This document shows positions 15,931 through 53,760 of a stretch of DNA of 64,000 nucleotides, one piece after another. The stretch lies in NCBI GenBank assembly GCA_050633305.1, contig JBOEGF010000010.1:448001-512000 (forward strand), read 5' to 3'. The translations under genes and the position numbers were made by a program. The stretch comes from Nannocystales bacterium. Its GTDB lineage: Bacteria > Myxococcota_A > Polyangia > Nannocystales > Nannocystaceae. Within the stretch, counting starts at the first letter, position 1; every line of letters begins with the position of its first letter. The notes below the pieces were generated by a model that was not told the DNA's origin, made no database searches, and saw nothing but the letters and a program-made list of their open reading frames with translations.

Positions 15931-15938
15931 CGGGCACC

Positions 15939-18017
15939 TCAGTTGGGGACGCGGCACGTGAAGCTCTCGCTGGTGAACAACACCGCGAGCATTTCGGCGA
16001 GGGACCCTCCGCTGTCGTCATAGGCTTCTTCGAGCGCGACGAACGTGCATCGGTCGTGGATGGTTTCTTCGCGCCCTGCGAAGTAGCGGAAGGTCTGCCG
16101 GATGAAGCAGCGTTTGACCCACTGCGACTCGGCGAACTTCTGGCTCATGTCCAGAGCACTGGTGACCGGCCCGCCCAGTTCGGCGGAGGGCATGAGGATG
16201 AGCTCGCTCGATCCGTCGGGCGAACCGCCGTGGTCTTCGACTCGCACGAATCCAGCGTGGTTGTAGATCTCGAACGGGTACCCCAGCGGATTCATCATGT
16301 TGTGGCAACCCGCGCAGTAGTCGTCTTCGTCGATCTGCTCGACCATCCGCTGGCGTGCGGATTGTTCGAGCGACGCTTCGGACAGGGCGGCATCCACAGT
16401 GAGAGGGATGTCGGGGATGTCTTGGCACAGCAGCTCCTCGCGAATCCACTTGCCACGGTGGATCGCGTTGGGGTCGTTTTCCGCCGCGAGGGAGTGCGCG
16501 CCTAGCCATGCCGGGTGGGTCAGGACGCCCGAGCGCTCGTCCGCAGGCAGCTCCTTCCATCGGTCCTCGCGCGTGTGCGGCGTAACGCCCTCGACGTTGT
16601 ACACACGGCTCATCTCGGCGGTGGTGTTGGAGACCGACGAGTCCTGATAGTCCGCTGTTGCCGGGGTGTAGAACATGCGCGAAGTCAGGAGCTTCGCCAG
16701 CAGGTCCGAGTCCTCCGCGAGGATCCGGGCGATCATGTCGTCGAGGTGATCGGTGAGGGTGTTTTCGTAGCCGTTGCCGCCCCCGACCGCGTTGCCGTAG
16801 CTGAGCTCGACCACGCCGCCGGACCACGCTGAGGTCTCCGACACCTCGACCTTGGGGATGGCACCGACGTCCTCATAGCCCAGCCATTCGCGGAAGAAAC
16901 GGCGGACTCCGATCGCCATTCCGAACTCTCCGCGGTTATCCCAGTGGCGGCTGTCTCCGCGGTCATGGCGGAGGTCGAGGCGCTCCTCGTCGAGGCCGCC
17001 GATGTACTGGTGGACGAGGCTGCGGACGGTCTCGAGGTCGGTGATCGTCCCGTCCTCCGCCGCCTCAGCAAAGCCGGAGAGGTACCCGTTGACGTCGCCG
17101 AGGGTGTGGACCTCGTGCGCACGCCGAACGCTGGGGACGCGGGGAGCACTTCCACCGATCGCGTACGCCATCGCTTGGGCAAGTTCCCAATCGGTCAGGT
17201 GTGTACGACCGTGTTCATCGAGCTCCCCTGATCCGACCTCGGTGCGGTGAAGCGCTCCGGCACTCATCCAGGCTGCGGCCGCGACCTTCCGAATCGTGGC
17301 TGCGCGCTCCTGAGGGCTGGTTTCATCGGCGAGCGCTTCTTGGGTGAAGCTGACGAGTCGGTCCACTTCGTCCTCAGTTGCGGGTCGGAAGTGGGAGCCA
17401 CGCTCCAGGTATCGCTGCGCGAAGTACCGCACACACTCTGCGCTGGGCGACGCCTCATCGTGAAAGCAAAGCGTCTGGGGGTCGTTGACGACCGTCGCGT
17501 TGGCGTTGGAGTCGTACGACCTCGCGCCGGTCCACGATGTTCCCGCTTCGCCGACGGTGTCGAGGTACAGGCTCAGAATGCTGGAGTCGACGGACTCCGT
17601 GGAGCTGAACGTCGAGTACCGATCCTCAGCGCGCGCGTAGAAGGGGTTTCTGTCCCGGTTGGTGCCGTACCAGGCTCCAACATTGCGGGTCCACTCGTCG
17701 TGATCGATCAGCCGGATGTCGGCGGAAGGAAGGGCCGGGGAACCGTCGCACATGAACAACTCGTCCTGGTCGACTTCGTTTCCCGATGGTGTGTCCTCCC
17801 CGTCGTCATCGTCCTCGTCATCGCCCCCGCTGGTGTCGTCTGCGGCCCCTTGGCTGCCACTCGCTTCGTCGAGCCCACCGCTTCCTGGACCTTCGGCGGT
17901 GCCCGTGTCGTCGGCGCTGTCGGTACCCGACCCGCTGTGGCTCCCCCCTTGGTGACAACCGACACCCGCCAGCAGCGCAATCGACGCGGTGCCCAGCGGC
18001 TTCCAAACCTTCAGCAT
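15939..18017 (-). CDS. DUF1592/DUF1588/DUF1585-type lipoprotein with CxxCH
   Basis: Lipobox LAGVGC; ERSGVLTHPAWL, IHRGKWIREELLC, CAGCHNMMNPLGYPFE, CFIRQTFRYFAGR. Confidence 0.88.
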   Translation of the reverse strand: MLKVWKPLGTASIALLAGVGCHQGGSHSGSGTDSADDTGTAEGPGSGGLDEASGSQGAADDTSGGDDEDDDDGEDTPSGNEVDQDELFMCDGSPALPSADIRLIDHDEWTRNVGAWYGTNRDRNPFYARAEDRYSTFSSTESVDSSILSLYLDTVGEAGTSWTGARSYDSNANATVVNDPQTLCFHDEASPSAECVRYFAQRYLERGSHFRPATEDEVDRLVSFTQEALADETSPQERAATIRKVAAAAWMSAGALHRTEVGSGELDEHGRTHLTDWELAQAMAYAIGGSAPRVPSVRRAHEVHTLGDVNGYLSGFAEAAEDGTITDLETVRSLVHQYIGGLDEERLDLRHDRGDSRHWDNRGEFGMAIGVRRFFREWLGYEDVGAIPKVEVSETSAWSGGVVELSYGNAVGGGNGYENTLTDHLDDMIARILAEDSDLLAKLLTSRMFYTPATADYQDSSVSNTTAEMSRVYNVEGVTPHTREDRWKELPADERSGVLTHPAWLGAHSLAAENDPNAIHRGKWIREELLCQDIPDIPLTVDAALSEASLEQSARQRMVEQIDEDDYCAGCHNMMNPLGYPFEIYNHAGFVRVEDHGGSPDGSSELILMPSAELGGPVTSALDMSQKFAESQWVKRCFIRQTFRYFAGREETIHDRCTFVALEEAYDDSGGSLAEMLAVLFTSESFTCRVPN

Positions 18018-31470: not shown

Positions 31471-32973
31471 CTAACCGGTCACATCACCGCGGGCTGGCTC
31501 ACTGGGGCGGGCGATCTCCCCGAGCGCGTGGCGGAGGCGGAGGTCCTGCTCCCGCACGGCGATGTGGGCTTCGATGGAGCGAAGTTCGGCTTCGACCCGC
31601 AAGGACTCGGCTTCGAGCATGTCGACCACGCCGACCGCTCCCACCCGATAACGGGCTGAAACCTGCTCGTACGCCGCTTCTGCGCTCTTTAGACCGACCT
31701 GACTCAGCCCGACCGAGCGACGCGCGGCCTGGAGTTGATGGACTGCTTGCACCACTTGGAGCCGGACGCCGCGCTGGAGCTGGGCGAGCTGAGCGGCGAC
31801 GGCCCGTCGCTGCGCTCGTTGCGTGCGAATCTTGGACCGGGTCGCGATCGCGCCCCGAACATCGTAGCTGAGGCGGGCTCCCGCGGCCCACGTGGTGTCG
31901 AACTGGTCGCGCTGCGGCACGACGCGCTGGTTGGGGTTGGCGGTATCGAGCTGAACAACGAGGTCGAGACGGGGGGCGTAGCGGGTTCGCGAGACCTTGA
32001 TCTGCTCTCGAAGCGACGCGTCGCTGGCTTGCAGGAGCTGGAGCTCGAGCCGGCGTCCGAGGGCTTGTTCCACCAGGGCGGTGGTGCCCTCGCGCTTGCG
32101 GTCGGCGGCGAAGGTGGCGGTGATGTCCTCGCCGAGGCTGAGGGTGGTGGGGTCGGCCGCGATGCGGGCCCCGAGGTCCTCAGCGGCGATGAACACGAAC
32201 GCCTCCGCTTCCGCGATACTGCGCTGCGCTGCGGCGAGCTGGGCCTGGAGCCGAAGCACATCGGTCTGTGTGATCGAGCCCGCGCGAAGGCGTGCAGTGG
32301 CTTCGTCGATGCGTTTTCCGACGCGAGCCGCGGAGCGGTCCGCGAGCTCGAGGTTGGCCTGCGCTCGAACCCAGTTGTAGTAGGTGATCTGGGCGTCGAC
32401 GGTGGAGTCCACCCGGGCAATGTCGCGGGCCAGTTCCGCGGCTCGCTCTCCGTGGCGCGCGGCGGCGACGGCGTGCGGAATGGTGAAGATGTCATCCGAG
32501 ACCGGAACCCCAACCGAGGCCGAGAGTGCGTAGGTGTCCTGAATGGCGGCGAACTGAAACGACTGCGAGACCGCGGGAACACCTTGGGAGTCCACGACGC
32601 AGCCGGTGGTGCCGTCGGGGCAGGCCCCGACCGCGAGTGGTCCTGGGTTGAGGGTCCCGGTGAGGGCGCCCGAGCTGCCGCCACCGGGGAGCGGGCTCAG
32701 CCGCATGTACTGCGCAGAGAGGTCGAGCGCTGGAATGTAGCCGGCGCGGGCTTCGTCGACCCGGGCGGCCGCTGCCTCGAGCTCTGCTGCACGAAGTTCA
32801 ACGTCGGGGGCGTCGAGCAGCGCTCGTTGAGCCACACGATCCGCGGTCAGGCCCCCGTCGGTGGGGTGCAGCACCGAGGACACGGTGTCGAGGGGAGCTG
32901 CGAGATCGTCGGGACGCGCCTGCGAAGGGGATGGTGGGGCCACCAGGACCAGAGCGAGCAGTGCGGCGATCAT
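31471..32973 (-). CDS. TolC family outer-membrane efflux protein
   Basis: Signal peptide, two OEP repeats (YIPALDLSA, YAPRLDL, RYRVGAVGVVDML); overlaps the RND gene. Confidence 0.88.
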   Translation of the reverse strand: MIAALLALVLVAPPSPSQARPDDLAAPLDTVSSVLHPTDGGLTADRVAQRALLDAPDVELRAAELEAAAARVDEARAGYIPALDLSAQYMRLSPLPGGGSSGALTGTLNPGPLAVGACPDGTTGCVVDSQGVPAVSQSFQFAAIQDTYALSASVGVPVSDDIFTIPHAVAAARHGERAAELARDIARVDSTVDAQITYYNWVRAQANLELADRSAARVGKRIDEATARLRAGSITQTDVLRLQAQLAAAQRSIAEAEAFVFIAAEDLGARIAADPTTLSLGEDITATFAADRKREGTTALVEQALGRRLELQLLQASDASLREQIKVSRTRYAPRLDLVVQLDTANPNQRVVPQRDQFDTTWAAGARLSYDVRGAIATRSKIRTQRAQRRAVAAQLAQLQRGVRLQVVQAVHQLQAARRSVGLSQVGLKSAEAAYEQVSARYRVGAVGVVDMLEAESLRVEAELRSIEAHIAVREQDLRLRHALGEIARPSEPARGDVTG

Positions 32974-35900
32974 TGGGCTTGTGCCTCCTGTTTGACGTAC
33001 GCGGCCGAGCGGCGAAACAGGACCTTGTACAAAGCGGGGACGACGATGAGCGTGAGAGCGGTCGACGCAGCGAGTCCGCTGATCATGGCCCACGCCAACG
33101 GTGGCCACAGGGAGGTGGCCGACAGCGCGAGCGGCATGAGGCCCGCGATGGTGGTGATCGTGGTGAGCAGGATTGGACGTGCCCGCTTGCGCACCGCATC
33201 GACGAGAGCCTCGTCGAGGCTCGCCCCCTCGTGTCGTCGACGTTCGACAACATCGACCATCACGATGGCGTTGTTGACGACGATACCGACCAGCGCGATC
33301 ACGCCAAGCAGCGACATGAACCCAAAGGGCTGACCTCCAAGGATGAGGCCCGGGATGACGCCCGCAGCAGCGAGAGGAACGGTGGTCATCACAATGCCCA
33401 CCCGGCGGAACGAGTTGAACTCGATCATCAGGAAGCCGATGAGCATCAAGACTCCCAGCGGAAGCGTCTGTAGGAGTGCCGTGTTGGCCTCGTTACTGCC
33501 CTCGTTCTCGCCGCCCACCTCGAGCGTCACGCCCTCGGGCAAGGTCGTGCCCTCGAGCTTTTTCAGCAGCTCGGCCACGATCGCCGCAGAGGTGAAGTTG
33601 GCTTCGACTCCCGAAAGGACGGAGACCTTGCGTTCGCCTTTGTAGTGATAGATCGCCGCGGGTCGCCAGATGACGGAGGTCTGCGCGATCTGAGCCAAGG
33701 GGACCGAAGATGCGGCATCGGGACCGACTTCGAGGGCAGGCAGACCGTCGACCGGGGTGTTCTCGCCTTGCGGTGAGCGAACCATGATGGGGACGGGGTC
33801 CTCGCCGCCGCGGTATTGACCGACGTTGAGTCCGTAGGTGTGGCCTCGCAGGGCGTGTGCAACGTCCATTCGGGTCACGCCGTGGCGTGCGGCCGCTGCA
33901 TCGTCCACGTCGACCTCGATGTTGGGCACACCGAGACCGCCATCGTCCCGAACATCGACAGAGCCGTCGATCGTCCGCAGCTCGCCCATCACGAGTTCGG
34001 CGGCCTGACGAAGCTGACCGAAGTCATCCCCGGTCAGTCGCAGCTCGACGGGGGCGGGCAGTCCTGGGCCTTGTTCCAGTCCGCGTGCGACGACCTGCAC
34101 CTGGGGCATGTCTTCGGCCGCAAACGCACGCACGTGCTCGATGAGCGCCTGGTTCTCCTGCTTGCTCGTGGTGTTGACGACCAGCTGCGCGAAGTGAGGC
34201 GCCCGCGGGATGGTGCTGAGGTTGTAGTAGAAGTGCGGGGCCGATCGCCCGACGAACGCAACGACACTGTGCACGTTGTCTTGGTCCGAGAGGTTGGCCT
34301 CCAGCGCCTGTGCGTAGCTGTCGATCTCGTCGAGGTGCGAGCCCTCGGGCAACTTGAGGTCGATGAGGACCTGGTTGCGGTCCGACGCGGGGAAGAAGCG
34401 CTGCTCGACCATGCCGATCGAGCCAAAGCTTGCCGCGACGACGCCCAGCGCGAGTGCGATGACGATCAGGGGACGACGAATCGAGATGCGACCGACGGTC
34501 CCGGAGACGCGCTCCAGCAACGACTCCTTGCGTACCGCCTTACGCTGCCGCAGCAGCCAGTTTGAAAGCACGGGTGTCACCAGCACCGCGTAGGCGTAGC
34601 TGATGCCCAGCGTCAGCATGATGAGGATGGGGATGGCGCGGGTGAACTCACCGACGCCGCCCTCGGCCAGCAGCATGGGAACAAACGCGGCCATCGTGGT
34701 GCCGGTGGCGGCGCCCAGAGGAAGAGCGAGTTCACGGACCGAGCCCGCCGCCGCGCGCAGCGGCGGTATCCCCTCGTCGATTCGGCCTTGCACGTGCTCT
34801 GCGACGACGATTGCGTTGTCGACGAGCATGCCCAGCGCGATCACCAGCGCGGCGATCGACATCTGGTGAAGCATGCCGCCGGCTGCGGCGTAGAGCGCGA
34901 GCGCGGCGAAGGCCACCAGCGGGATGACGGCGGAGACGACAAGCCCCATCCGGACGCCCATCGCGACACACAGCACCACGGCAACGACGCCGATACCCAT
35001 CAGCAGTGACGTGCCGAGCCCGGCGATGCGAGCCTCGACGCGTTCGGGCTGGAAGATGAGTTCTTCGAGTTGGACCTGGGGGTATCGAGCGCGCAGGCCA
35101 TCTGCCGTCTCGCGCATCGTCTCTCCGAAGTCCACGAGGTTGATGCCCTCTCGTGGCACGACTGCGACCGCCACTGCGGGGACGCCGTCGTGGCGAACGC
35201 GGTCGATCCGTGGGTCAGCCTCGCCAAAGCGGACATCCGCAATTTCATCGAGCGGGACCGTGACCCCGGTGGGCAACACGATCGCGGTCGAGCGCAGCTC
35301 TTGGAGGCTACGGAACTCGGTTCCCGGGCGTAGCGAGGCCATCTTGTCGCCCACACGCACCGCGCCCCCGGGAACCCCGGCGTTGCGGGCATACAGTTGG
35401 TCTCGCAGGAAGACCGGGGTGAGGCCGTATCGGTGCGCCGCGGCGTCGTCGAGCTCGATGGTGAGCTGTTGACCCGGGTCGGCGATCAGCTCGACCTTGG
35501 CGACGTTGGGCGCGGAGAGCAGGTCGTCTTTGATGTCTTGCGCCGCCTGGTGAAGCGTTCCCGAATCTCCAGGTCCGGTGATCGCCCACACGACCGAGGT
35601 TTGGTCCGCGATGCCGCGGTCGAGCACCGCGTCTCCGGCGCCCTCGGGAAACTCTTGCTGCGCCGCTTCGAGAGCGTCTTCGACGTCCTTCCAGGCGTCA
35701 TCGAGGGCGTCGGCGTCGACGCTGTCGCGGAAGACCAACTGCACGCTGCCAAACCCGGCGCGAGCGGTGCCGAAGGTCCGGCGCAGCTCGTCGACTTCGG
35801 CCAGGTGTTCCTCGAGGGGATCGATGATGAGGCTCTCGACCTTCTCGGCGTCGGCGCCCGCAAACTCGACGGACACCAGTGCCCACCGAACGGTCATGTC

Positions 35901-36014
35901 GGGGTCCTCTTGGCGCGGCATGGTCAGCCACGCGAACAGCCCGACCGCCGCCAGAAGGCCTGCGGCGGTCATGATCAGCCGGGACTGGCCCAGCATCTTC
36001 ATGATGGCGTTCAT
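32970..36014 (-). CDS. RND efflux permease (AcrB/AcrD/AcrF family)
   Basis: 1014 aa; PRQEDP, ALGMLVDNAIVV, GIVVNNAIV, RARPILLT. Confidence 0.95.
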   Translation of the reverse strand: MNAIMKMLGQSRLIMTAAGLLAAVGLFAWLTMPRQEDPDMTVRWALVSVEFAGADAEKVESLIIDPLEEHLAEVDELRRTFGTARAGFGSVQLVFRDSVDADALDDAWKDVEDALEAAQQEFPEGAGDAVLDRGIADQTSVVWAITGPGDSGTLHQAAQDIKDDLLSAPNVAKVELIADPGQQLTIELDDAAAHRYGLTPVFLRDQLYARNAGVPGGAVRVGDKMASLRPGTEFRSLQELRSTAIVLPTGVTVPLDEIADVRFGEADPRIDRVRHDGVPAVAVAVVPREGINLVDFGETMRETADGLRARYPQVQLEELIFQPERVEARIAGLGTSLLMGIGVVAVVLCVAMGVRMGLVVSAVIPLVAFAALALYAAAGGMLHQMSIAALVIALGMLVDNAIVVAEHVQGRIDEGIPPLRAAAGSVRELALPLGAATGTTMAAFVPMLLAEGGVGEFTRAIPILIMLTLGISYAYAVLVTPVLSNWLLRQRKAVRKESLLERVSGTVGRISIRRPLIVIALALGVVAASFGSIGMVEQRFFPASDRNQVLIDLKLPEGSHLDEIDSYAQALEANLSDQDNVHSVVAFVGRSAPHFYYNLSTIPRAPHFAQLVVNTTSKQENQALIEHVRAFAAEDMPQVQVVARGLEQGPGLPAPVELRLTGDDFGQLRQAAELVMGELRTIDGSVDVRDDGGLGVPNIEVDVDDAAAARHGVTRMDVAHALRGHTYGLNVGQYRGGEDPVPIMVRSPQGENTPVDGLPALEVGPDAASSVPLAQIAQTSVIWRPAAIYHYKGERKVSVLSGVEANFTSAAIVAELLKKLEGTTLPEGVTLEVGGENEGSNEANTALLQTLPLGVLMLIGFLMIEFNSFRRVGIVMTTVPLAAAGVIPGLILGGQPFGFMSLLGVIALVGIVVNNAIVMVDVVERRRHEGASLDEALVDAVRKRARPILLTTITTIAGLMPLALSATSLWPPLAWAMISGLAASTALTLIVVPALYKVLFRRSAAYVKQEAQAQ

Positions 36015-37099
36015 CGTTGCACCTGGACCGTTTGCCCGGGGACGAGTCCGAAATGACCGGCGCTGACGACCTGCTCGCCGGCGGTCAGCCCCTGCGTGAC
36101 CAGAGCGTCCACGCCCAGCAGCTGGGAGACCTCGACGGAGCGGCGCTGCGCGAGTCCGGCGTCGTCGATGACAAACACGGTCGTCTGACCGCCTCCTGCA
36201 TCGACGACGGATGACACCGGGACTGTGACCCCGGACTGGCCTTGTCGGGAGAGCACGAAGTCCGCCGTCATCCCCGGGATGAGGTCGGCGTCAGAGGGCA
36301 GCGCGACGACGACCGGAAAGAGGCGGCCCGCCCCTTCGCCCCCATGCCCGATCGATTCGATGCGTCCGGTGATGCGTTCTCCCTTCTGCAGCGGGAGGGT
36401 GAGCTGGGCGGTGTCGCCGACCCCGATGTCGGCGAGGACGGTCTCGGGCACCTGGACCTCGACCTCGAGCGCGTCCCCGTTGATCTGGACGACGGACTGT
36501 CCGGCCCCGACGAACTCGCCCGGCTCGGCGTTGACCCGAACGACCGTGCCCGTGAACGGGCTACGGATGATGCCGTCCCGGTGCACGCGGTTCGCCTCGT
36601 CGAGCTCGACTTGGGCGGCATCGCGGGAGACGGAGTACATGGAGACCGCGTGGGCGGCGGATTCGAGCTCCGCTTGTGATGCGGCTCGGTCGGCTGCGAG
36701 CTGGTCGGCGCGCGTGTGGTCTCGTTTCCCCTGCGCGAGTTGCTCGCGCGCCTGCCGAATGCCGGCCTTGGCGCGCGCGATGCGGTTGGAGGCCCCACGG
36801 CGGTCGAGGGCGGCGATCACGGCCCCCGCTTCGACCCGGTCACCGACCTCGACCCAGCGTTTCTGGACCCGGCCTGGCCCGGTGAACGAAAGCTTGGCCG
36901 CGCGCTTCGCTCGGACCACCCCGGAGAACCGAAGCTCGTGTGCGGTCTCGGACGCGGTGGCTTGCGACACGACCACGCTCTTCTGCGTCTTCTCGGGGCT
37001 CTCCGCGACGGCCGCATCGGACGACGGCATCAAGGGAAACGCGAGCGCACCGGCCACGGCGACCAGGGCGAGAACTCCAAGCGGCTTGCGGGGATTCAT
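36011..37099 (-). CDS. RND periplasmic adaptor (membrane fusion protein)
   Basis: GRV...VEVGDRVEAG..IA, IRSPFTGTV, LIPGMTA. Confidence 0.93.
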   Translation of the reverse strand: MNPRKPLGVLALVAVAGALAFPLMPSSDAAVAESPEKTQKSVVVSQATASETAHELRFSGVVRAKRAAKLSFTGPGRVQKRWVEVGDRVEAGAVIAALDRRGASNRIARAKAGIRQAREQLAQGKRDHTRADQLAADRAASQAELESAAHAVSMYSVSRDAAQVELDEANRVHRDGIIRSPFTGTVVRVNAEPGEFVGAGQSVVQINGDALEVEVQVPETVLADIGVGDTAQLTLPLQKGERITGRIESIGHGGEGAGRLFPVVVALPSDADLIPGMTADFVLSRQGQSGVTVPVSSVVDAGGGQTTVFVIDDAGLAQRRSVEVSQLLGVDALVTQGLTAGEQVVSAGHFGLVPGQTVQVQR

Positions 37100-45826: not shown

Positions 45827-46539
45827 CGGCTCAGCGCCTCCTCGACGGTAAAAGCGCCCTCATAAAGGGCGCGTCCCAGCACGACCCCAGCAATGTCGGC
45901 GCGGGCGCAAGCTTCGATGTGATCGAGGCTGCCCACGCCGCCGCTGGCGTACACTGGGATGGAAACTTCTTTTTGGATGGATGCGGTGCCATCGACGGCG
46001 GGACCGCCTTGCATGCCATCGCGGGACACGTCGGTGTGCAGCACGGCTGCGGCGCCCCAACGTGCGGCAGTTTGTGCGAGCTGAAGGGCTGTGACCTCGC
46101 TCTTCTCGGTCCAGCCTTCGAGGGCCACCATGCCGTCGCGAGCGTCCGCCGCGACGACGATGCGGTCCGCGTGCTTTTGGCACAGCGCCTCGACCGTGGT
46201 GGGGTCCTTGATGGCAAGGGTTCCGAGGACAACGCGATCGACACCGGCATCGATGAGCGCATCGACCGTCGCAGCATCACGAATGCCTCCGCCGGTTTGG
46301 ACGCGGACGTCGTGTTCGGCGGCCGCACGGCAGATGTCGACGACGATCTTGCGATGCGTGGGGTTGCCTTCGAAAGCGCCGTCGAGGTCGACGACGTGAA
46401 TGCAGCCCGCGCCCGCGCGCGCAAATCCCTGAGCCAACCCGACGGGATCGTCGGAGTAGGTCGTGACGCGGTCGCGCTCACCTTGAGCCAGTCGCACCGC
46501 TTTTCCGCCCATCAGGTCGATGGCCGGAATGAGGATCAT
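45820..46539 (-). CDS. hisA: ProFAR isomerase
   Basis: [35 protein letters not shown]. Confidence 0.97.
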
Positions 46540-47426
46540 CCCCCGCCCCCGAGCAGGAAGGCGCGAAGGAACTTGAGGCCCGATCGCTGACTCTTCTCGG
46601 GGTGGAACTGGCAGCCAAGGACGTTGCCGCGCCGCACTGCAGCTGGGAAACGAATGCCGCCGTACGTCGTCATCCACATGACGTCGTCGTTGTTTTCGCA
46701 GGCGACGTAGTAGCTGTGAACGAAGTAGTAGTGCTCGTTGGTCGGCTCGACCTGGTTCCAACCCATGTGTGGGACCTTGAGCCGTCGGACGAGACGCTGT
46801 GGCTTTGCGGGCTCGACGATCGGAGCCGGAGCTGGCTCGATGATTGGAGCAGGAGCAGGAGCCGCGACGGGGGGTGGTGCGGCAGTCGGGGCCGCGAATC
46901 CGGGGAGCTGTCCCTGGTCGTGCCCAGAGAGCGGCTGTTGAGCCGGTGCGGGGGGTGGGGGCGCGGGCGTCGGGGTGGCCGCCGGGAGATCTGTCGCGAC
47001 GGTCTGAGCGTGGCTGGTGTCGGCTCTCGGGTCGGCGGCTGCGGGTGCGACCTCTTGGGCGCCTGACTCAGCGGGCATCTCCATTCCATCAGGGAAACGC
47101 CGGCATCGGCCAGGAAGGATCCCGAGCCCTTTTTGCCCCTCGTTTTCCTCACTGCTCTGAAAAAGCAGCTGCATGCCGAGGCAGATCCCCAAGAAGGGAT
47201 CACCGCGCTCGATGACCATGCGCAGGGCATTGCCCATCCTGCCTTCGACAAGCTTCTGGGTTTTTGCGCCAAATGCGCCCTGGCCGGGGAAGACGACACA
47301 GCGGGACATGGCGACTTCGTCTGCGTTCCGCGTGACATTCACGGCTCCACCGACTTGGATGAGAGCGCGTTCCACGCTAGCGATGTTGCCGAGCCCGGCG
47401 TCGACGAGGGTGACTTCGCGCGCCAT
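46536..47426 (-). CDS. hisH: IGP synthase glutamine amidotransferase with a 101-aa insertion
   Basis: GNIASV, PGQGAF, GICLGMQ, KVPHMGWN, YFVHSY, QFHPEKS. Confidence 0.95.
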   Translation of the reverse strand: MAREVTLVDAGLGNIASVERALIQVGGAVNVTRNADEVAMSRCVVFPGQGAFGAKTQKLVEGRMGNALRMVIERGDPFLGICLGMQLLFQSSEENEGQKGLGILPGRCRRFPDGMEMPAESGAQEVAPAAADPRADTSHAQTVATDLPAATPTPAPPPPAPAQQPLSGHDQGQLPGFAAPTAAPPPVAAPAPAPIIEPAPAPIVEPAKPQRLVRRLKVPHMGWNQVEPTNEHYYFVHSYYVACENNDDVMWMTTYGGIRFPAAVRRGNVLGCQFHPEKSQRSGLKFLRAFLLGGGG

Positions 47427-47562
47427 GAAGGCCGCATGAATACCACAAACGGCCCCGCCCGCAGAATCGGCGCGCGATCCCCCCTGTACGGGCTTTCACC
47501 TGAGGGTGACCTTCGGTGACACGCCTGTGGGGGGCAGGCTCGGCGCGCTCGGTTCCGTCCGC

Positions 47563-47579
47563 TCTGTGAAGGATTGTTA
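47563..47579 (+). promoter_or_regulatory. Putative OmpR-family binding box, copy 1
   Basis: TCTGTGAAGGATTGTTA; 15/17 identical to 49813-49829. Confidence 0.6.
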
Positions 47580-47675
47580 GCGGATGGCCAACGATTGTTT
47601 GGCCCGCCGAGTGCCGAGCCGACCGACGCGTACTCTGCCACGGCGCACCGTGTAGGGTACCGGGCGGATCGAGTC

Positions 47676-48380
47676 GTGCAGGCGCTGCGAGTTGCATACG
47701 TCGAGGATGACGAGAAGCTCGGTCGTCTCACGGCCCGGTACCTCGAGTCCCACGGAGTCGAAGTCGCGGTCTACCAAGACCCCGAAGAGGCGATCTCAGA
47801 GATCCTCCGCGCACGCCCGGACGTCGTACTGCTGGACCTGATGTTGCCGGGGATCGATGGGTTCGAGGTGCTGCGACGGCTTCGCAAACATCTCGACGTC
47901 GCGATCATCATGGTCACCGCCCGGGGCGAAGAGGCCGATCGGGTGATCGGTCTGGAAGGCGGGGCGGACGACTACGTGTCGAAGCCGTTCGCTTCGCGGG
48001 AACTGTTGGCCCGCATTCGAGCGCAGGGCCGACGGGTCCGCCAGCGGACGATGGCCCCCAACCGGCGTGCCCAAGCTGGCCCCTTGGTCATCGATGGCCG
48101 GACCCGGTCGGCCTTGCTCGACGGCAAGCGGCTGGAGCTGACGACGTACGAGTTCGAGCTGCTGCAGGTGCTGGTGCAGCGTGCTGGCGAGGTCCTCACG
48201 CGAGAGCAACTCGTTGAGGCCGTTCGCGGCAGCGCGGAAGAAGCGTTCGAGCGCTCGATCGATGTGCACATCTCGAACATTCGCAAGAAGCTCGGCGAAC
48301 CCGCGCGGCATCCGACGTTGCTCAAGACCGTCAGAGGCATCGGCTACATCCTGGCGTGTGGCCCTGAAAGCGACTCGTGA
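47676..48380 (+). CDS. OmpR-family response regulator
   Basis: YVEDD, LLDLMLP, GADDYVSKPF, ERSIDVHISNIRKKL, TVRGIGY. Confidence 0.96.
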   Translation: MQALRVAYVEDDEKLGRLTARYLESHGVEVAVYQDPEEAISEILRARPDVVLLDLMLPGIDGFEVLRRLRKHLDVAIIMVTARGEEADRVIGLEGGADDYVSKPFASRELLARIRAQGRRVRQRTMAPNRRAQAGPLVIDGRTRSALLDGKRLELTTYEFELLQVLVQRAGEVLTREQLVEAVRGSAEEAFERSIDVHISNIRKKLGEPARHPTLLKTVRGIGYILACGPESDS

Positions 48381-49819
48381 AGTCCACGCTCTCGTTTCGG
48401 ATCTATGCGTTGGGGCTGCTGCAGATCGCGGTTGTCCTGTTTGGATTCGGCGTGGTTGCTCAGTGGGATCGCCCGGCACCTCCGGACGAGATGCGCAGGC
48501 AGGAGGTTTCGCTCGCGTCCGCAGTCGAGCTTGATCTTCACGATGCGGTCTCGGTCCAGCGTCACCTCGACCTGGCGCTGGCGGAGCAGGGCGTAGAGGT
48601 GGAGGTCTTCGACCACGAAGACCGGCGAATCGCCACGACCATTCCGGAGGATGCGGAGCCATGCGTCGAGGTGATGGGCGCAAGTCCGCACGATCAGCCG
48701 CCGCCTCCCCCGGGGCCGGGAAACCCGCCCGGGGGTCCACCCGGCGGCCCTCCGAGGGGCGACGGCAGGGCCGGCGTCGTCACGGGTCCGCCCCCGGGCA
48801 GTCCGCGACCCTTCTGCTACTCGCTTCCGATTCGGTCCGGAGCCGGCCTTGGCAAGGTCGTGTTCCGGCGCGTCATGCCTGGCATGACGTCCCCGTTCGC
48901 GCCGTCGGTGATCCTGCTGACGCTCGTCACGGTGGCCGTCGCGTCGTGGTTGCTGATGCGGTCCCTCGTGCGACCCCTTCAGACCCTGGGCAACGCGGCT
49001 CACGCCTTGGGAAAAGGTGACCTCGCCGCGCGGACGGGAATGGAGCGGGACGACGAGCTGGGAGAGGTCGCGCATGCGTTCGACACGATGGCCAACCGTA
49101 TCGAGGAACTCGTTCGCGGCGAACGGGAGTTGATCGCGAACATCTCGCACGAGTTCCGCACCCCGTTGGCCCGGATCCGGGTCGCGCTGGACTTGGCCGC
49201 GGAGTCGGACTCGGCAGATGACGTGCGCGCGTCCCTCGGAGACATCGTCGAGGATCTCGAAGAACTCGACCAGCTCGTCTCCGATGTTCTCGACTCGGCG
49301 CGGCCGGTCTTGGACCCGCAGGGAGCTTCGGGGACACCGACCCTTCACTCGAAGTCGTTCGATGGAACACAATGGTTGCAGGCGTCAGCAGAGCGTTTTG
49401 CCGGGCTGTATCCGGACCGTGCCCTCGAGATCGAACTGGCCGCGGGGGCGCCCTTGCGCGGAGATCCCTCGCTGCTTCGGCGGATGGTCGACAACCTGTT
49501 GGACAACGCGCAGAAGTTTTCGGCGTCGGATCCACGGCCTATCTCGCTGTCCTCGCGTCGCGTGGGAGAATGGTTGCACATCGAGGTCCGCGACTTTGGG
49601 ATCGGCATCGGCCCCGAAGATCTCGACCGGGTGTTCGAGCCCTTCTTCCGGGCGGACCCCAGTCGAGCGCGCAGTACGGGTGGCACGGGATTGGGCTTGG
49701 GGCTGGCCCGGCGCATCGCTCACGCGCACGGCGGGACGTTGGCCCTGGAGAGTCAGGTCGGTGTAGGAACCACCGCTCGCATCCGCTTGCCGGTCGCCGA
49801 TGCGGAGCCCCGTCTGTAA
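48377..49819 (+). CDS. HAMP-domain sensor histidine kinase
   Basis: Two TMs, Pro/Gly-rich periplasmic loop, HAMP, SHEFRTPL, NLLDNA, GGTGLGL; GTGA overlap. Confidence 0.95.
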   Translation: MKSTLSFRIYALGLLQIAVVLFGFGVVAQWDRPAPPDEMRRQEVSLASAVELDLHDAVSVQRHLDLALAEQGVEVEVFDHEDRRIATTIPEDAEPCVEVMGASPHDQPPPPPGPGNPPGGPPGGPPRGDGRAGVVTGPPPGSPRPFCYSLPIRSGAGLGKVVFRRVMPGMTSPFAPSVILLTLVTVAVASWLLMRSLVRPLQTLGNAAHALGKGDLAARTGMERDDELGEVAHAFDTMANRIEELVRGERELIANISHEFRTPLARIRVALDLAAESDSADDVRASLGDIVEDLEELDQLVSDVLDSARPVLDPQGASGTPTLHSKSFDGTQWLQASAERFAGLYPDRALEIELAAGAPLRGDPSLLRRMVDNLLDNAQKFSASDPRPISLSSRRVGEWLHIEVRDFGIGIGPEDLDRVFEPFFRADPSRARSTGGTGLGLGLARRIAHAHGGTLALESQVGVGTTARIRLPVADAEPRL

Positions 49820-49829
49820 GGGATTGTTA
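49813..49829 (+). promoter_or_regulatory. Putative OmpR-family binding box, copy 2
   Basis: TCTGTAAGGGATTGTTA overlapping the kinase stop, about 64 bp upstream of the YHYH gene. Confidence 0.6.
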
Positions 49830-49892
49830 AGAACCCTCGCGGAACTGTTTGCGGCGGACGGTCTCCGGCCGCCCCGCGACTAGCCTGCGTGG

Positions 49893-50888
49893 GTGAACTG
49901 GCGACACTTCGGACTTCGGGACAAGCGCGGTCGCGCTCTTCTTGCCCTGTGCCTGCTCTCGCTGGCCTGTGGAGACGAGGGGGGCGGAGATACGGTTGGG
50001 GCATCGACGGGCGCAGAGGGATCAACAACCTCCGCGGCATCGTCGTCGGGCTCGACCGCTTCGGGCTCCTCGGGCGCAGTCGGCTCCTCGAGTGGCGTTG
50101 CCGACTCGAGCTCTTCGGGCACGGCCAGCACCGGGTCCGGGGGCTCGGGAACGACGGGCACCACCGGAACCACCGGCGGTCTGCATCCGGCGTTTGCAGA
50201 GTTTGATGCGGAGAACTTCACCATCACGCTCGATGGGGACGAGGTCGTGCTGGAGTCGAACGGCCTCCCCAACCACGTCTCGCCGTACTGGTCCAACACG
50301 ACGGCCCGTGCGTCTCCCGACGGCATGGGACCCGCCACTCCGGCAGCCGACGAAGACCATCCGTTGTTCGTGGCACCCACGGCGACGAGCTTCGAAAGCA
50401 TGGCTCCGGGCAACATCGACGACTTCATGGGCTCCTTCGAGCTGCGGGTTCCCGTCTCGCCCCAGCGGGCCGACCAATCCACGGCAACGGGCTTGGGTCC
50501 GATCGGGATGGCTGTCAGCGGAGCGATGATCTACAACGACGAGGAGGGGCCCAACGTACCGCTCGACAACGCCGTCCCTTCGCTCGACTTCACCGCAGCG
50601 CACACCGGCCCGCAGAGCTATCACTACCACCTCGAGCCCAAGGCCTGGTCCGACGATGACGACGCCCTCATCGGCGTGATGGCCGACGGCTTCTTCTTGT
50701 ATGGGCGTCGGGACAGCGCGACCGGAGACTACCCTGACGACCTGGATGTCTCTGGAGGGCACGAGGGGATGACTCCGCACGCACGCACGCCCGAGTACCA
50801 CTATCACATCCAGAACGAAGCCTACTTGAACGAGTACTACGTGCTCTTTCCCGGCGACTATCAGGGCACCCCCACGGGGATTCAGTAG
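49893..50888 (+). CDS. YHYH-domain lipoprotein (copy 1)
   Basis: Lipobox LSLAC, S/G/T linker, SNGLPNH, LGPIG, SYHYH, IGVMADGFFLYG, EYHYH. Confidence 0.9.
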   Translation: MNWRHFGLRDKRGRALLALCLLSLACGDEGGGDTVGASTGAEGSTTSAASSSGSTASGSSGAVGSSSGVADSSSSGTASTGSGGSGTTGTTGTTGGLHPAFAEFDAENFTITLDGDEVVLESNGLPNHVSPYWSNTTARASPDGMGPATPAADEDHPLFVAPTATSFESMAPGNIDDFMGSFELRVPVSPQRADQSTATGLGPIGMAVSGAMIYNDEEGPNVPLDNAVPSLDFTAAHTGPQSYHYHLEPKAWSDDDDALIGVMADGFFLYGRRDSATGDYPDDLDVSGGHEGMTPHARTPEYHYHIQNEAYLNEYYVLFPGDYQGTPTGIQ

Positions 50889-50901
50889 CGGGGGCTCGAC
50901 G

Positions 50902-51495
50902 GTGGGCAAGAGAGTCCCATGGCTTGTGGTGTGCGTCGGAGGCCTCGCCCTCGGTGCCGCTTGGCCTCAGACGCAACCGCGAGCGGCCGCGGCCGTGACC
51001 GAGATCGAAGCCGAAAGGCTCGACGTGCGGGCCGATCAGGGGCTCGTTGTTCTCGGCCGACTGCCGTACACAGGGGTCGCGCTTCGTCACGATGAGATGG
51101 GCCGACTCGTCGCGCGAAACCAGTATCGGTTTGGCAAAAAACACGGTCGTCAGGAGATGTGGTTTGCGGACGGCACGCGGAGTTTTTTCAGCGACTACGT
51201 GGTGGGGAAGCGACATGGCGAGACCCGGAGCTGGTGGCGCAACGGCAACCCGCGGACGCGCTCGAACTTTGTCGAGGGGCGGGCCGACGGAGTCCAGCTC
51301 CAGTGGTACGTCAGCGGCGCGAAGTTCAAGGAGATGCGGCTGCGGGCCGGGCGAGAGGTCGGGATGCAGCGCTCCTGGCGAGAGAACGGAAAGCTCTACA
51401 ACAACTACGAAGTCCACGATGGCCGCATCTACGGACTCAAGCGAAGCAAACTGTGTTTTCGGCTCGACGATGAAGAAATCCAAATCTCGAAGTAG
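50902..51495 (+). CDS. Exported MORN-variant repeat protein (YwqK-like annotation family)
   Basis: Signal peptide; PYTG; repeats GKKHG...WF.DG, GKRHG...WW.NG, GRADG...WY.SG, GREVG...W.ENG; ends GLKRSKLC. Confidence 0.85.
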   Translation: MGKRVPWLVVCVGGLALGAAWPQTQPRAAAAVTEIEAERLDVRADQGLVVLGRLPYTGVALRHDEMGRLVARNQYRFGKKHGRQEMWFADGTRSFFSDYVVGKRHGETRSWWRNGNPRTRSNFVEGRADGVQLQWYVSGAKFKEMRLRAGREVGMQRSWRENGKLYNNYEVHDGRIYGLKRSKLCFRLDDEEIQISK

Positions 51496-52300
51496 TGGTT
51501 TGCTGGCGCTCGTCGTACTCGTCGCGGGGGCCTGCGATGCCGGGGACGGCGAGGACGAAACCGGAGCTGGCGCCACGGAAGGCTCCGCGGACGTCCACCC
51601 GGCGTACGCGGAGTTCGATGCCGACCGCTTCACGATCAGCCTCGACGGGGACGAGGTCGTGCTCGAGTCGACGGGCTTGCCCAACCACGTTTCGCCGTAC
51701 TGGTCGAACACGACCGCTCGGTCGGCTTCGGATGCGATGGGACCAGACACGCCTGCCGCTGACATCGATCACCCACTGTTCGTGGCACCCACCGCGACCG
51801 ACTTTGCGTCCATGGCACCGGGAAATATCGACGACTTCGTCGGGTCCTACGAGTTGCGGGTCCCCGTGTCTCCGTCGTTGGCGAGCAGCTCTTCTGCCAC
51901 CGGCTTGGGCCCCATCGGCATGGCGGTCAGTGGGGCGATGATCTACAACGACGAGGAGGGCCCCAACGTTCCGCTGGATGATGCTGTGCCCTCTTTGGAC
52001 TTCACGGCCGCGCACACGGGCCCGCAGAGCTACCACTACCACCTGGAACCGAAAGCGTGGTCGGACGACGACGACGCGCTCATCGGCGTGATGGCCGACG
52101 GGTTCTTCCTGTACGGGCGTCGGTGCAACTCGACCGGGGAGTACCCCGTAGACCTGGATGCATCCGGTGGCCACGCGAGCACAACGCAGCACGTCCTCGT
52201 GGCCGAGTATCACTATCACATCCAAAACGACGCCTACTTGAACGAGTTCTACCTGCTCTTTCCCGGCGACTACCAAGGGACCGCTTCGGCGATTCAATAG
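51470..52300 (+). CDS. YHYH-domain lipoprotein (copy 2)
   Basis: ATG 51470; lipobox VAGAC; YHYH domain nearly identical to copy 1. Confidence 0.9.
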   Translation: MKKSKSRSSGLLALVVLVAGACDAGDGEDETGAGATEGSADVHPAYAEFDADRFTISLDGDEVVLESTGLPNHVSPYWSNTTARSASDAMGPDTPAADIDHPLFVAPTATDFASMAPGNIDDFVGSYELRVPVSPSLASSSSATGLGPIGMAVSGAMIYNDEEGPNVPLDDAVPSLDFTAAHTGPQSYHYHLEPKAWSDDDDALIGVMADGFFLYGRRCNSTGEYPVDLDASGGHASTTQHVLVAEYHYHIQNDAYLNEFYLLFPGDYQGTASAIQ

Positions 52301-52312
52301 ACGAGTCTGGCG

Positions 52313-53086
52313 ATGGAAAACTCGAATCCACATCGACCTTTGCGTGCACCGGGCCGGAGCCTGATGCTCGTTTGTCCGTTGGCCTCGGTACTTCTGGGTG
52401 GGGCATGCAGTGCGGACGAGCGAGCATCGCAGGATCCCGCGTCGGCTCCTGCGGCCGGGGCGATGTCCGCGGTCGTCCCCCGGCCGGAGTTTGTCGAGCG
52501 CGCGCGCGACGAGGGACCGCTTCCCTTCTATGCCGATGCGGCCTTCACCCCGCACTGGCTCTCACCGGGCGGGGCCGAACTCGACGAGTTTCATACCGTC
52601 GCTCCATTCGAGCTCACGAACCAGGACGGGGACCTCGTCACGCAGGAAACGTTCGACAAGAAGATCTACGTCACCGATTTCTTCTTTTCGACGTGCCCGG
52701 GTATCTGCAAGGCGATGACGAGAAACATGGCGGACTTGCAGGAGACGTTTGCCGACGACCCGGACGTGCTGTTCCTGTCGCACTCGGTCACCCCCGACGT
52801 GGATGACGTCGAGCAACTCGCCGGGTACGCCCAGGCCAATGGCGTGCAGTCGGGAAAGTGGCACCTCGTCACGGGCGATCGGGAGCTGATCTATCGTCTC
52901 GGTCGGCGCAGCTACTTCGTGGATGAGAACCAGGGCGAAGAGGTGGGGCCGGACCAGTTCCTGCACACCGAGAACTTCGTCTTGGTCGACAGGCACCGTC
53001 ACATTCGCGGGATCTACAACGGTCTCAACAAAGCGTCGCTGGCGCAGCTCGTCGCCGACGTGAAGCGGCTGAAGCAAGAGGGGTAA
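52313..53086 (+). CDS. SCO1/SenC family copper-chaperone lipoprotein
   Basis: Lipobox LGGAC; DFFFSTCPGIC (CxxxC), SHSVTP, LHTENFVLVD. Confidence 0.93.
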   Translation: MENSNPHRPLRAPGRSLMLVCPLASVLLGGACSADERASQDPASAPAAGAMSAVVPRPEFVERARDEGPLPFYADAAFTPHWLSPGGAELDEFHTVAPFELTNQDGDLVTQETFDKKIYVTDFFFSTCPGICKAMTRNMADLQETFADDPDVLFLSHSVTPDVDDVEQLAGYAQANGVQSGKWHLVTGDRELIYRLGRRSYFVDENQGEEVGPDQFLHTENFVLVDRHRHIRGIYNGLNKASLAQLVADVKRLKQEG

Positions 53087-53331
53087 ACGGCCCGGCGCCG
53101 CTTCGTGGCGCCCTCGGCAACCACGCGGGAAGACCGGGTTTGACGGCCGACGTCGGCTCGCTCGATGGGCCATCGCGGCCCCCGTCACCGGTGGTTCCGA
53201 AGTGCCCTGTGTTGGTCAGGGACCCCGGCGTGCGTGCGGTCGACGCGTTGCGTCGGCGACGAGCCGTACGACGCGGCCCTCGCCCGCGGTGAACCGGCCT
53301 TGGCCAGCGGGCCGAACGAACCAACGACCGA

Positions 53332-53760
53332 CTACGGTCGGACCGGACTGGGGCCCACTGGCGCGTCGGTGGTCCCCACCGGAATCAGAACCTCGCGCTC
53401 GATACTGGCCGGCGCGGCGTCGAGCTCGGACATCATGTACAGCGCTGCCACCGCAAGGATGACGACGACGCTGAGGAGCTGAAGCGGGACCGCGATCAGG
53501 CTCAGCCACGACGTCGTCTGTGGCTGCATGATCTGCCGTCGACGCAGGCGGCGGTTGAGCTTCTCGTAGAAGTCCTCGGGCGCCTGCACCTCGCCCAGGC
53601 CTCCCACGAGGGAGATGACCTTCTGGAGGTCTGCGAGCTCCTCCGCCACCTCGGGCGAACTCTCGAGCAGGTCCTCGAACGCCTTGGCGTCGTCGGGCTC
53701 GAGTTCGTCGTCGAGGTAGGCACTGACCATGTCGGTGCCTGTGTTGGTAGAAGTGCTCAC
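53332..53760 (-). CDS. Anti-sigma factor (ZAS-like fold lacking Zn ligands) with TM
   Basis: VSAYLDDEL...FEDLLESSPEV and a TM helix; follows an ECF gene. Confidence 0.8.
   Translation of the reverse strand: MSTSTNTGTDMVSAYLDDELEPDDAKAFEDLLESSPEVAEELADLQKVISLVGGLGEVQAPEDFYEKLNRRLRRRQIMQPQTTSWLSLIAVPLQLLSVVVILAVAALYMMSELDAAPASIEREVLIPVGTTDAPVGPSPVRP

Follow-up and report, generated by a model that had tools for sequence, protein, structure and literature searches.

Copper delivery by SCO proteins and related systems

SCO proteins deliver copper to cuproproteins, and CuB is a three-histidine site. Sco/SenC proteins bind copper through a CxxxC motif and a histidine and, together with PCuAC (PccA, PcuC), supply copper to the CuA centre of the aa3 oxidase, to NosZ and to the CuB centre of the cbb3 oxidase (PMC7558416). 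Described here is a six-gene block of a Nannocystales bacterium (GenBank assembly GCA_050633305.1, contig JBOEGF010000010.1), in which a two-component system precedes two YHYH lipoproteins, a MORN-repeat protein and an SCO lipoprotein. The block lies in a stretch of 64,000 nucleotides (positions 448,001 to 512,000 of the contig, forward strand), which is called the window and to which all coordinates below refer unless a contig is named. Its YHYH, MORN and SCO genes (the cassette) would represent a form of SCO-based maturation that uses a new type of adaptor and serves a client whose fold resembles none yet solved. The reading that we favour, at a probability of about one half, is that copper passes from SCO, by way of the cysteine-bearing MORN adaptor, to a YHYH protein that is likely bound to the cell surface. 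The cassette itself was not found in the literature searched, in which subscription papers were thinly covered, and the module is apparently both widespread and undescribed.

The cassette shares with Sco/SenC and PCuAC a membrane-tethered SCO of thioredoxin fold with CxxxC and histidine and the presence of a second periplasmic partner, and CuB offers a precedent for a three-histidine client (PMC7558416). Unlike PCuAC, which is a Met/His barrel, the partner here has a sheet of MORN repeats and a single cysteine. The client is a lipoprotein without a solved fold, the SCO bears a predicted FTPxW docking motif specific to its subfamily, and the oxidase genes lie elsewhere.

The YHYH family (PF14240) has been predicted to comprise zinc hydrolases of phage tails with three histidines and an aspartate (PMC7824862). 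A three-histidine zinc site has likewise been predicted for it, the family being described as uncharacterised (bioRxiv 10.64898/2026.10.18.759936), and it is merely mentioned in passages of two further papers (10.1101/2024.06.08.598090; PMC7029224). An earlier note on this DNA treated YHYH as a His-rich domain of unknown function and proposed copper binding; a metal role had in fact been predicted before, but for zinc rather than copper (PMC7824862; bioRxiv 10.64898/2026.10.18.759936). Copper is preferred here for the cassette YHYH proteins because they are linked to SCO. They resemble the family in their D...H...YHYH repeats, in scoring above its cut-off and in a fold common to phage YHYH proteins. 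As a subfamily they differ in being single-domain lipoproteins linked to MORN and SCO, a linkage that the passages cited above do not mention.

The deaminase YwqJ has YwqK as its cognate immunity protein (bioRxiv 10.64898/2026.09.29.755374). The cassette MORN protein shares with YwqK probable MORN_2-type repeats, a gene position directly 3′ of a putative metalloenzyme gene and an automatic database name. Unlike YwqK, it is exported and usually lipidated, carries an invariant tail cysteine, has an SCO partner and is highly conserved. The protein encoded upstream of it also differs from YwqJ, being a single-domain lipoprotein in which only PF14240 was found and no LXG or other trafficking domain.

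Two further systems are comparable in part. Like the MbnP/MbnH pair, which has been linked to copper binding (PMC11951088), the cassette encodes an exported, presumably metal-binding protein with its own putative maturation factor, and the two systems sometimes share an operon. MbnH makes kynurenine by diheme chemistry (PMC11951088), whereas the factor of the cassette would be SCO plus an adaptor. The metal-responsive CnrH/CnrY/CnrX type of ECF system combines a sigma factor, a single-pass anti-sigma factor and a periplasmic four-helix metal sensor with a His/Glu/Met site. As in the CnrH/CnrY/CnrX layout (PMC6851896), Bacteroidota cassettes often follow genes for an extracytoplasmic function (ECF) sigma factor, an anti-sigma-like protein and a Spy-like protein. 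Unlike in that system, the Bacteroidota targets are not efflux pumps, and the layout is absent from the window.

A conserved YHYH-MORN-SCO unit

The six open reading frames lie on the forward strand, and the spacings of the last four given in the earlier note (13 bp, a 26-bp overlap and 12 bp) are exact. YHYH lipoprotein 1 (YHYH-1; 49893..50888, 331 residues) is followed by the MORN-repeat adaptor (50902..51495, 197 residues), YHYH lipoprotein 2 (YHYH-2; 51470..52300, 276 residues) and the cassette-type SCO lipoprotein (52313..53086, 257 residues). Pfam bears out the families proposed for the block (Response_reg with Trans_reg_C; HAMP-HisKA-HATPase_c; YHYH; SCO1-SenC), MORN_2 staying below its cut-off. 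The GC content at third codon positions is 0.76-0.81 in the six frames; the genome has 11 Mb and 66% GC, and at the window locus it is syntenic with another Myxococcota locus (L008).

Gene neighbourhoods were compared in the best 80 of 293 genomic loci retrieved with YHYH-2, nearly all from Bacteroidota, and in the best 80 of 240 metagenome loci retrieved with MORN. In the genomic set MORN follows YHYH in 79 loci, the sole miss being a contig edge, and SCO comes next in 75. The five loci without SCO comprise three contig edges (L019, L041, L068) and two true gaps (L066, L086); both true-gap genomes retain a cassette-type SCO elsewhere (330-337 bits, with FTPxW) that adjoins neither MORN nor YHYH. 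In the metagenome set YHYH is present in 74 loci and SCO in 69. Where at least 400 bp of upstream sequence is available, YHYH occurs in all 65 loci, and where at least 300 bp is available downstream, SCO occurs in 67 of 72.

Because these sets hold the closest relatives, 300 Bacteroidota genomes were also drawn evenly around a centre genome picked for having the cassette, giving 301 in total. A YHYH match is present in 30 of them. At 110 bits or more the MORN profile matched 16 times, in 15 genomes of which several are near kin, and the next match falls to 84 bits. All 16 adjoin both YHYH and SCO; neither the next 15 MORN loci nor 15 weaker YHYH loci have a partner within 1.5 kb. The cassette thus occurs in about 5% of sampled Bacteroidota (14 of the 300 drawn). 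Its gene order is constant across three YHYH subclades, with identities as low as about 35%. In the phylum of the window, 18 of 301 genomes have a YHYH match; among 13 of 20 places fetched, three hold a full cassette, one holds YHYH and a MORN gene cut before its tail without SCO, and nine have neither partner.

The conserved unit is therefore YHYH-MORN-SCO and not the whole operon, and its linkage is far beyond chance. The linkage is conserved chiefly in Bacteroidota, for which the earlier note had proposed a similar neighbourhood.

Two genomes hold two complete cassettes each, from different YHYH subclades (G302, at L034 and L237; G402, on contigs C3 and C5). EF-hand/YHYH fusion genes and CotH kinase genes (7 of 80 genomic and 13 of 80 metagenome loci) often adjoin the cassette, for example at L144, L158, L183, L190 and L191. 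A polyphosphate kinase 2 gene lies 3′ of SCO in three loci (L009, L018, L063), accompanied by Ppx/GppA in two of them.

The SCO protein

The SCO lipoprotein matches PF02630 at 83.1 bits against a cut-off of 22.8 and has a lipobox cysteine at position 32. The intact CxxxC and histidine ascribed to it earlier are present as CPGIC (C128, C132) and H218, which are kept in 76 of 76 aligned rows. A further motif, F78-T-P-x-W82, marks the subfamily: F78 occurs in 14/14 cassette SCOs versus 1/16 sister solo SCOs. In a quick tree, cassette SCOs form a group apart from those of oxidase operons (95 in the Shimodaira-Hasegawa-like approximate likelihood ratio test, SH-aLRT), with one solo SCO inside it.

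There are no cytochrome oxidase genes in the window, as had been noted; COX1 occurs solely on contigs C7 and C21. The aa3 oxidase operon on C7 has two SCOs of its own, and C21, with a second COX1-type gene, has none. More generally, cassette genomes contain other SCOs, one of them within an oxidase operon. Of 112 flanking genes picked, 90 were scanned, and none of these encodes an oxidase subunit or PCuAC. By these sequence comparisons the cassette SCO is a dedicated paralogue, distinct from the oxidase SCOs, although it may serve an oxidase in trans.

A widespread Bacteroidota sister family of solo SCOs (L284-L299, L235) lacks FTPxW, and no YHYH or MORN gene was found within 1.5 kb of its members.

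The YHYH lipoproteins

YHYH-1 consists of a lipobox cysteine (Cys26), a Ser/Gly/Thr linker and two D-x3-[GA]H...YHYH repeats. It is 82% identical to YHYH-2 (lipobox Cys22) across a core of 235 residues. Both proteins exceed the PF14240 cut-off of 25 bits (38.3 and 35.5 bits, respectively) and carry the YHYH motifs. These motifs had been correctly recognized, but the previous count of histidines overlooked a sixth in the core, which contains H182/H189/H191 and H235/H248/H250 (YHYH-2 numbering), with H73 in addition. The conserved residues of YHYH-2 also include D177, D210 and D230. In an alignment of 124 rows that reaches down to about 30% identity, each of the six core histidines is present in 115-123, H73 in 108 and a glutamate two residues past the first YHYH in 110.

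The YHYH-2 core was modelled with a predicted local distance difference test (pLDDT) of 95.8 and a predicted template modelling score of 0.92 as a loop-rich shape that matches no fold among the solved structures compared. The protein is strongly acidic and His-rich, and MORN is basic. Among Bacteroidota rows, a polar-acidic-acidic pattern follows the lipobox cysteine in 56 of 85 for YHYH, compared with 2 of 68 for MORN and 3 of 73 for SCO, a count weakened by the acidity of YHYH throughout. A similar pattern is defined as a lipoprotein export signal in PMC5080379; the signal is not known to apply to myxobacteria. Mature YHYH is accordingly likely, as far as this motif goes, to be surface-exposed in Bacteroidota.

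A third, distant YHYH lipoprotein is encoded in the same genome (G000:C4:367396-368400; L001). It is Cys-rich, scores 165.7 bits against PF14240 and has no nearby MORN or SCO match. A protein resembling the cassette clade (P0147) is filed under a brown-alga gene set and is possibly a bacterial contaminant.

The MORN adaptor and the predicted complex

The MORN protein scores 23.1 bits with the MORN_2 profile, below the cut-off of 29.6. Modelled alone, it forms a hairpin sheet of MORN type (pLDDT 92), whose last 15 residues, including C185, fall to about 50. The nearest structures are those of SET7/9 and MORN1 (E values of about 3e-4 to 1e-3). Its look-alikes in the Atlas belong to MORN_2, and databases label them ‘YwqK family antitoxin’. 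The single C-terminal cysteine singled out earlier, C185, is invariant (80/80 aligned rows) and occurs across all three YHYH subclades of the cassette. The suggestion that the protein is exported agrees with its signal-like N-terminus; the lipobox cysteine is missing here, though present in 70 of the 80 rows.

Complex prediction was run with YHYH, MORN, SCO and three zinc ions, MORN being scored as the partner. The complex scored 0.73; the best of three controls, with YHYH replaced, reached 0.38, and two unrelated partners scored 0.00. Of 157 solved complexes, 116 reach the score mark applied, as do 2 of 215 mismatched pairs; these counts are only roughly valid here, where own alignments were used and zinc was included. 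The runs share at least 53% of their contacts, and the partner has a pLDDT of at least 79. MORN is placed between the other two chains, its C-terminal repeats and cysteine tail lying on the copper-site face of SCO. The tightest pairs link SCO 77-80 with MORN 165-179, the interface lists include SCO C128-C132 and H218 as well as MORN C185, and the first MORN repeats contact YHYH 55-59 and 122-130. In this controlled prediction MORN behaves as a scaffold, in keeping with the earlier suggestion of a scaffold rather than an antitoxin. No similar complex was found among solved structures.

Conservation agrees best with the predicted MORN-SCO docking. On SCO, 28 of 36 interface residues are conserved versus 52 of 160 elsewhere, an interface that includes the copper site itself. 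Nine of the 14 positions that discriminate cassette from solo SCOs fall inside the predicted interface (36 of 196 residues); the rows compared are kin and not independent (9 of 14 cassette rows after near-copy removal).

History of the block

Similarity to congeners ends at about 47538 and restarts at about 53340-53380. In four of five congeners fetched, hisH and the anti-sigma gene adjoin, leaving the site empty, and the fifth holds a different insert of about 4 kb. The block at 47539..53330 (ends approximate) was therefore inserted into the space between these two genes.

The window YHYH pair nests in a Bacteroidota-dominated group (SH-aLRT 100) of a quick tree of 72 rows, from which about half of the close Bacteroidota rows were omitted. 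Because the tree lacks a known root and long branches meet deeper in it, transfer from Bacteroidota is likely rather than established. Myxobacterial cassette YHYH proteins occupy three separate positions, and the pair at L008 was duplicated independently. The cassette appears to have entered myxobacteria more than once, and the second YHYH copy is a lineage-specific addition.

In one congener, an island (L308; G605:C4:33000-52999) combines a YHYH-MORN-SCO cassette with two extra YHYH genes, two two-component pairs and a Spy-like gene. It also contains a weak match to a diheme peroxidase family and a long open reading frame that presumably belongs to an IS91-type transposase.

Regulation

The two-component system consists of an OmpR-family response regulator (47676..48380; PF00072 and PF00486) and a HAMP sensor histidine kinase with a Pro/Gly-rich sensor segment (48377..49819; HAMP, HisKA, HATPase_c). 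The frame of the regulator is open from 47574, and a close orthologue (L124) starts at the GTG equivalent to the start given here. Candidate operator 1 (47564..47601, forward strand) lies 5′ of the regulator and contains direct repeats at about 0, +10 and +31, a spacing taken to be of OmpR type. Candidate operator 2 (49814..49851, forward strand) lies 5′ of YHYH-1 and straddles the kinase stop codon, the 73-bp gap between kinase and YHYH-1 containing the conserved motif. A matrix built from seven sites of L008, L124 and L309 was used to scan the 11-Mb genome. Operator 2 ranks first (46.7 bits), operator 1 second (28.6 bits) and the next site scores 15.0, a test that is partly circular because the collecting pattern was taken from the window.

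Orthologues of the pair occur at L008, L124 and L309, and in the close relative L124 the pair lies 5′ of the cassette. The motif precedes YHYH genes in L008, in L124 and twice in L309. The last locus (G605:C30:296000-310000) belongs to the congener with the island, in which the orthologous pair (79% and 56% identity) and two motif copies precede five distant YHYH genes; the cassette of that genome is elsewhere, and no MORN or SCO gene was found within 14 kb of this cluster. It follows that the regulator tracks YHYH genes in general. The earlier note had counted the two-component system as part of the system. Local co-insertion bears this out, but general membership does not hold, since an orthologous pair adjoins the cassette in only 1 of 80 loci. 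The pair is a lineage-specific addition, co-inserted with the cassette and sharing a candidate operator with it.

The five distant YHYH proteins of that cluster are Cys-rich, and one has a stretch of HD repeats.

In Bacteroidota, the cassette loci instead contain genes for ECF sigma factors (35 of 80 loci), Spy/LTXXQ/Metal_resist-like proteins (32) and EF-hand proteins (28), and a short anti-sigma-like gene is present in 30 loci (19 + 11). Eight loci have a regulator pair that we take, from its sequence type, to be of the LytTR class. The Spy-like protein keeps H66 in 32/32 and H118 in 30/32 rows; it scores 20.7 bits against Metal_resist (cut-off 29.2), and one member has no sequence match in the PDB.

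Proposed mechanism and alternatives

Expression of the cassette would be driven by a regulator of extracytoplasmic signals: here the co-inserted OmpR pair acting at the repeated operator, and in Bacteroidota an ECF sigma factor with an anti-sigma-like and a Spy/CnrX-like protein, or the LytTR pair. The three genes travel together in fixed order across three YHYH subclades. In the exported proteins, the last MORN repeats would dock on F78-T79-P80, I234 and N236 of SCO, which include the subfamily-specific motif, placing the Cys185 tail on the face of C128, C132 and H218, and the first repeats would hold apo-YHYH. We infer that the metal is copper, that it moves from SCO to YHYH, and that Cys185 may act as a relay ligand, passing it to one or both of the His3 sites. 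In Bacteroidota, loading would take place in the periplasm before the mature YHYH is flipped outward, as YHYH has the export-signal-like motif and MORN and SCO mostly do not. The loaded YHYH would most likely be a surface copper redox protein or enzyme. A more specific version is offered tentatively and with well under even odds. In it, the cassette YHYH proteins would be surface copper enzymes of a new class, with a fold that the PDB lacks and with two His3 repeats binding two coppers, and would be matured by an undescribed route in which MORN docks on SCO and its tail cysteine serves as a swinging relay ligand.

Several findings weigh against copper loading by this route. The two 80-locus sets represent closest relatives only, and in the even draw independent cases number fewer than the 15 genomes because of near kin. 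Half of the YHYH-bearing Bacteroidota genomes (15/30) lack this MORN, and their histidine pattern is the same without the cassette; 4/4 tested myxobacteria with only distant YHYH proteins have no such MORN. The YHYH-2 model resembles phage YHYH models (TM score of about 0.6), so that the fold occurs beyond the cassette, and both family predictions cited above name zinc. The export-signal count suffers from the acidity of YHYH. Within the predicted complex, C185 and the SCO copper site are known from the interface lists and not as a contact pair, and no YHYH histidine is listed, only the neighbours P185 and Q186. The YHYH interface is not enriched in conserved residues (9/28 versus 77/209 elsewhere), and since the control score of 0.38 persists with YHYH replaced, MORN-SCO is the better supported contact. 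The response regulator is below all cut-offs shown, including the heavy-metal regulator family TIGR01387 (157.9 versus 279.2), and the kinase is below that of the heavy-metal sensor family TIGR01386 (157.7 versus 292.55), so that neither falls among CusRS, CopRS or CzcRS by these NCBIfam profiles. The 90 flanking genes scanned contained no copper pump, Cus component, multicopper oxidase or oxidase subunit. The copper-linked neighbours that do occur, MbnP at 3 of 80 loci and an MbnH-like diheme peroxidase at 4 of 80, speak for copper but have no others beside them.

Part of this evidence could be read in terms of thiols. SCO would then be a disulfide oxidoreductase acting on Cys185, and MORN would chaperone or switch a zinc-hydrolase YHYH, for example with the cysteine capping the metal until it is oxidized. 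A mixed disulfide would suit a lone invariant cysteine whose tail, disordered in the isolated protein, is modelled against the CxxxC face, an oxidoreductase role has been proposed for Sco1 of T. thermophilus (PMC7558416), and the predicted zinc hydrolase with three histidines and an aspartate (PMC7824862) or three-histidine zinc site (bioRxiv 10.64898/2026.10.18.759936) would be retained, as would the glutamate past the first YHYH (110/124). Yet the copper ligand H218 of SCO is invariant (76/76), the YHYH core has no conserved cysteine pair to be oxidized, and the model sets the tail region on SCO, away from the YHYH histidines; we regard this explanation as unlikely. Copper might also flow in the opposite direction, from YHYH as a surface or periplasmic sponge through MORN to SCO, and there serve uptake, storage or the assembly of an oxidase. 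YHYH is very acidic, rich in histidine and frequently duplicated in the cassette, MbnP/MbnH occasionally adjoin it, the regulators recall the CnrH/CnrY/CnrX layout (PMC6851896) with near-invariant histidines in the Spy-like protein (H66, H118), and contig C21 has a COX1-type gene without an SCO. Reverse flow would, however, leave the cassette without a conserved transporter beside it (one TonB receptor among the 90 flanking genes) and with other SCOs in the same genomes, one of them in an oxidase operon, and the invariant Asp, Glu and His residues and 65-75% cross-phylum identity resemble a catalytic site rather than a sponge. It is accordingly given a rather low probability.

A toxin-immunity reading, with a cell-wall hydrolase effector in YHYH, a YwqK-like immunity role for MORN and SCO as a passenger, is highly improbable. 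The database name of the look-alikes, the role of YwqK towards YwqJ (bioRxiv 10.64898/2026.09.29.755374), a YHYH-MORN adjacency tighter than that of MORN and SCO, and the patchy, mobile distribution would all agree with it. Against these stand the lack of a trafficking domain, a secretion system and hypervariability, the presence of SCO in 16/16 sampled cassettes and its retention elsewhere when the operon is broken, the better support for the predicted MORN-SCO contact, and one decayed locus that lost both the MORN cysteine tail and SCO.

Extra SCO paralogues without a known client are common in bacteria, and the YHYH domain is widespread and without an experimental function. The cassette points to a specific candidate SCO client, a specific class of adaptor and residues that can be tested: C185 of MORN, F78, C128, C132 and H218 of SCO, and H182/189/191 and H235/248/250 of YHYH. 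If copper loading holds, it would define a family of copper proteins whose fold resembles no solved structure and a new SCO hand-over route, and would correct a common ‘antitoxin’ annotation. If YHYH proteins are copper enzymes, thousands of ‘YwqK antitoxin’ proteins in such loci would be metallochaperone adaptors.

Other features of the window

HisH, encoded beside the block (46536-47426, reverse strand), has a Pro/Ala-rich insertion of about 90 residues within its amidotransferase domain, which is also found in relatives and varies in length. On the same strand, a gene pair at 14488-18017 encodes DUF1552 (HXXSHH) and DUF1588/DUF1585 proteins. A resistance-nodulation-division efflux operon (outer-membrane factor, AcrB-type pump and membrane-fusion protein) lies at 31474-37099, also on the reverse strand and outside the inserted block.

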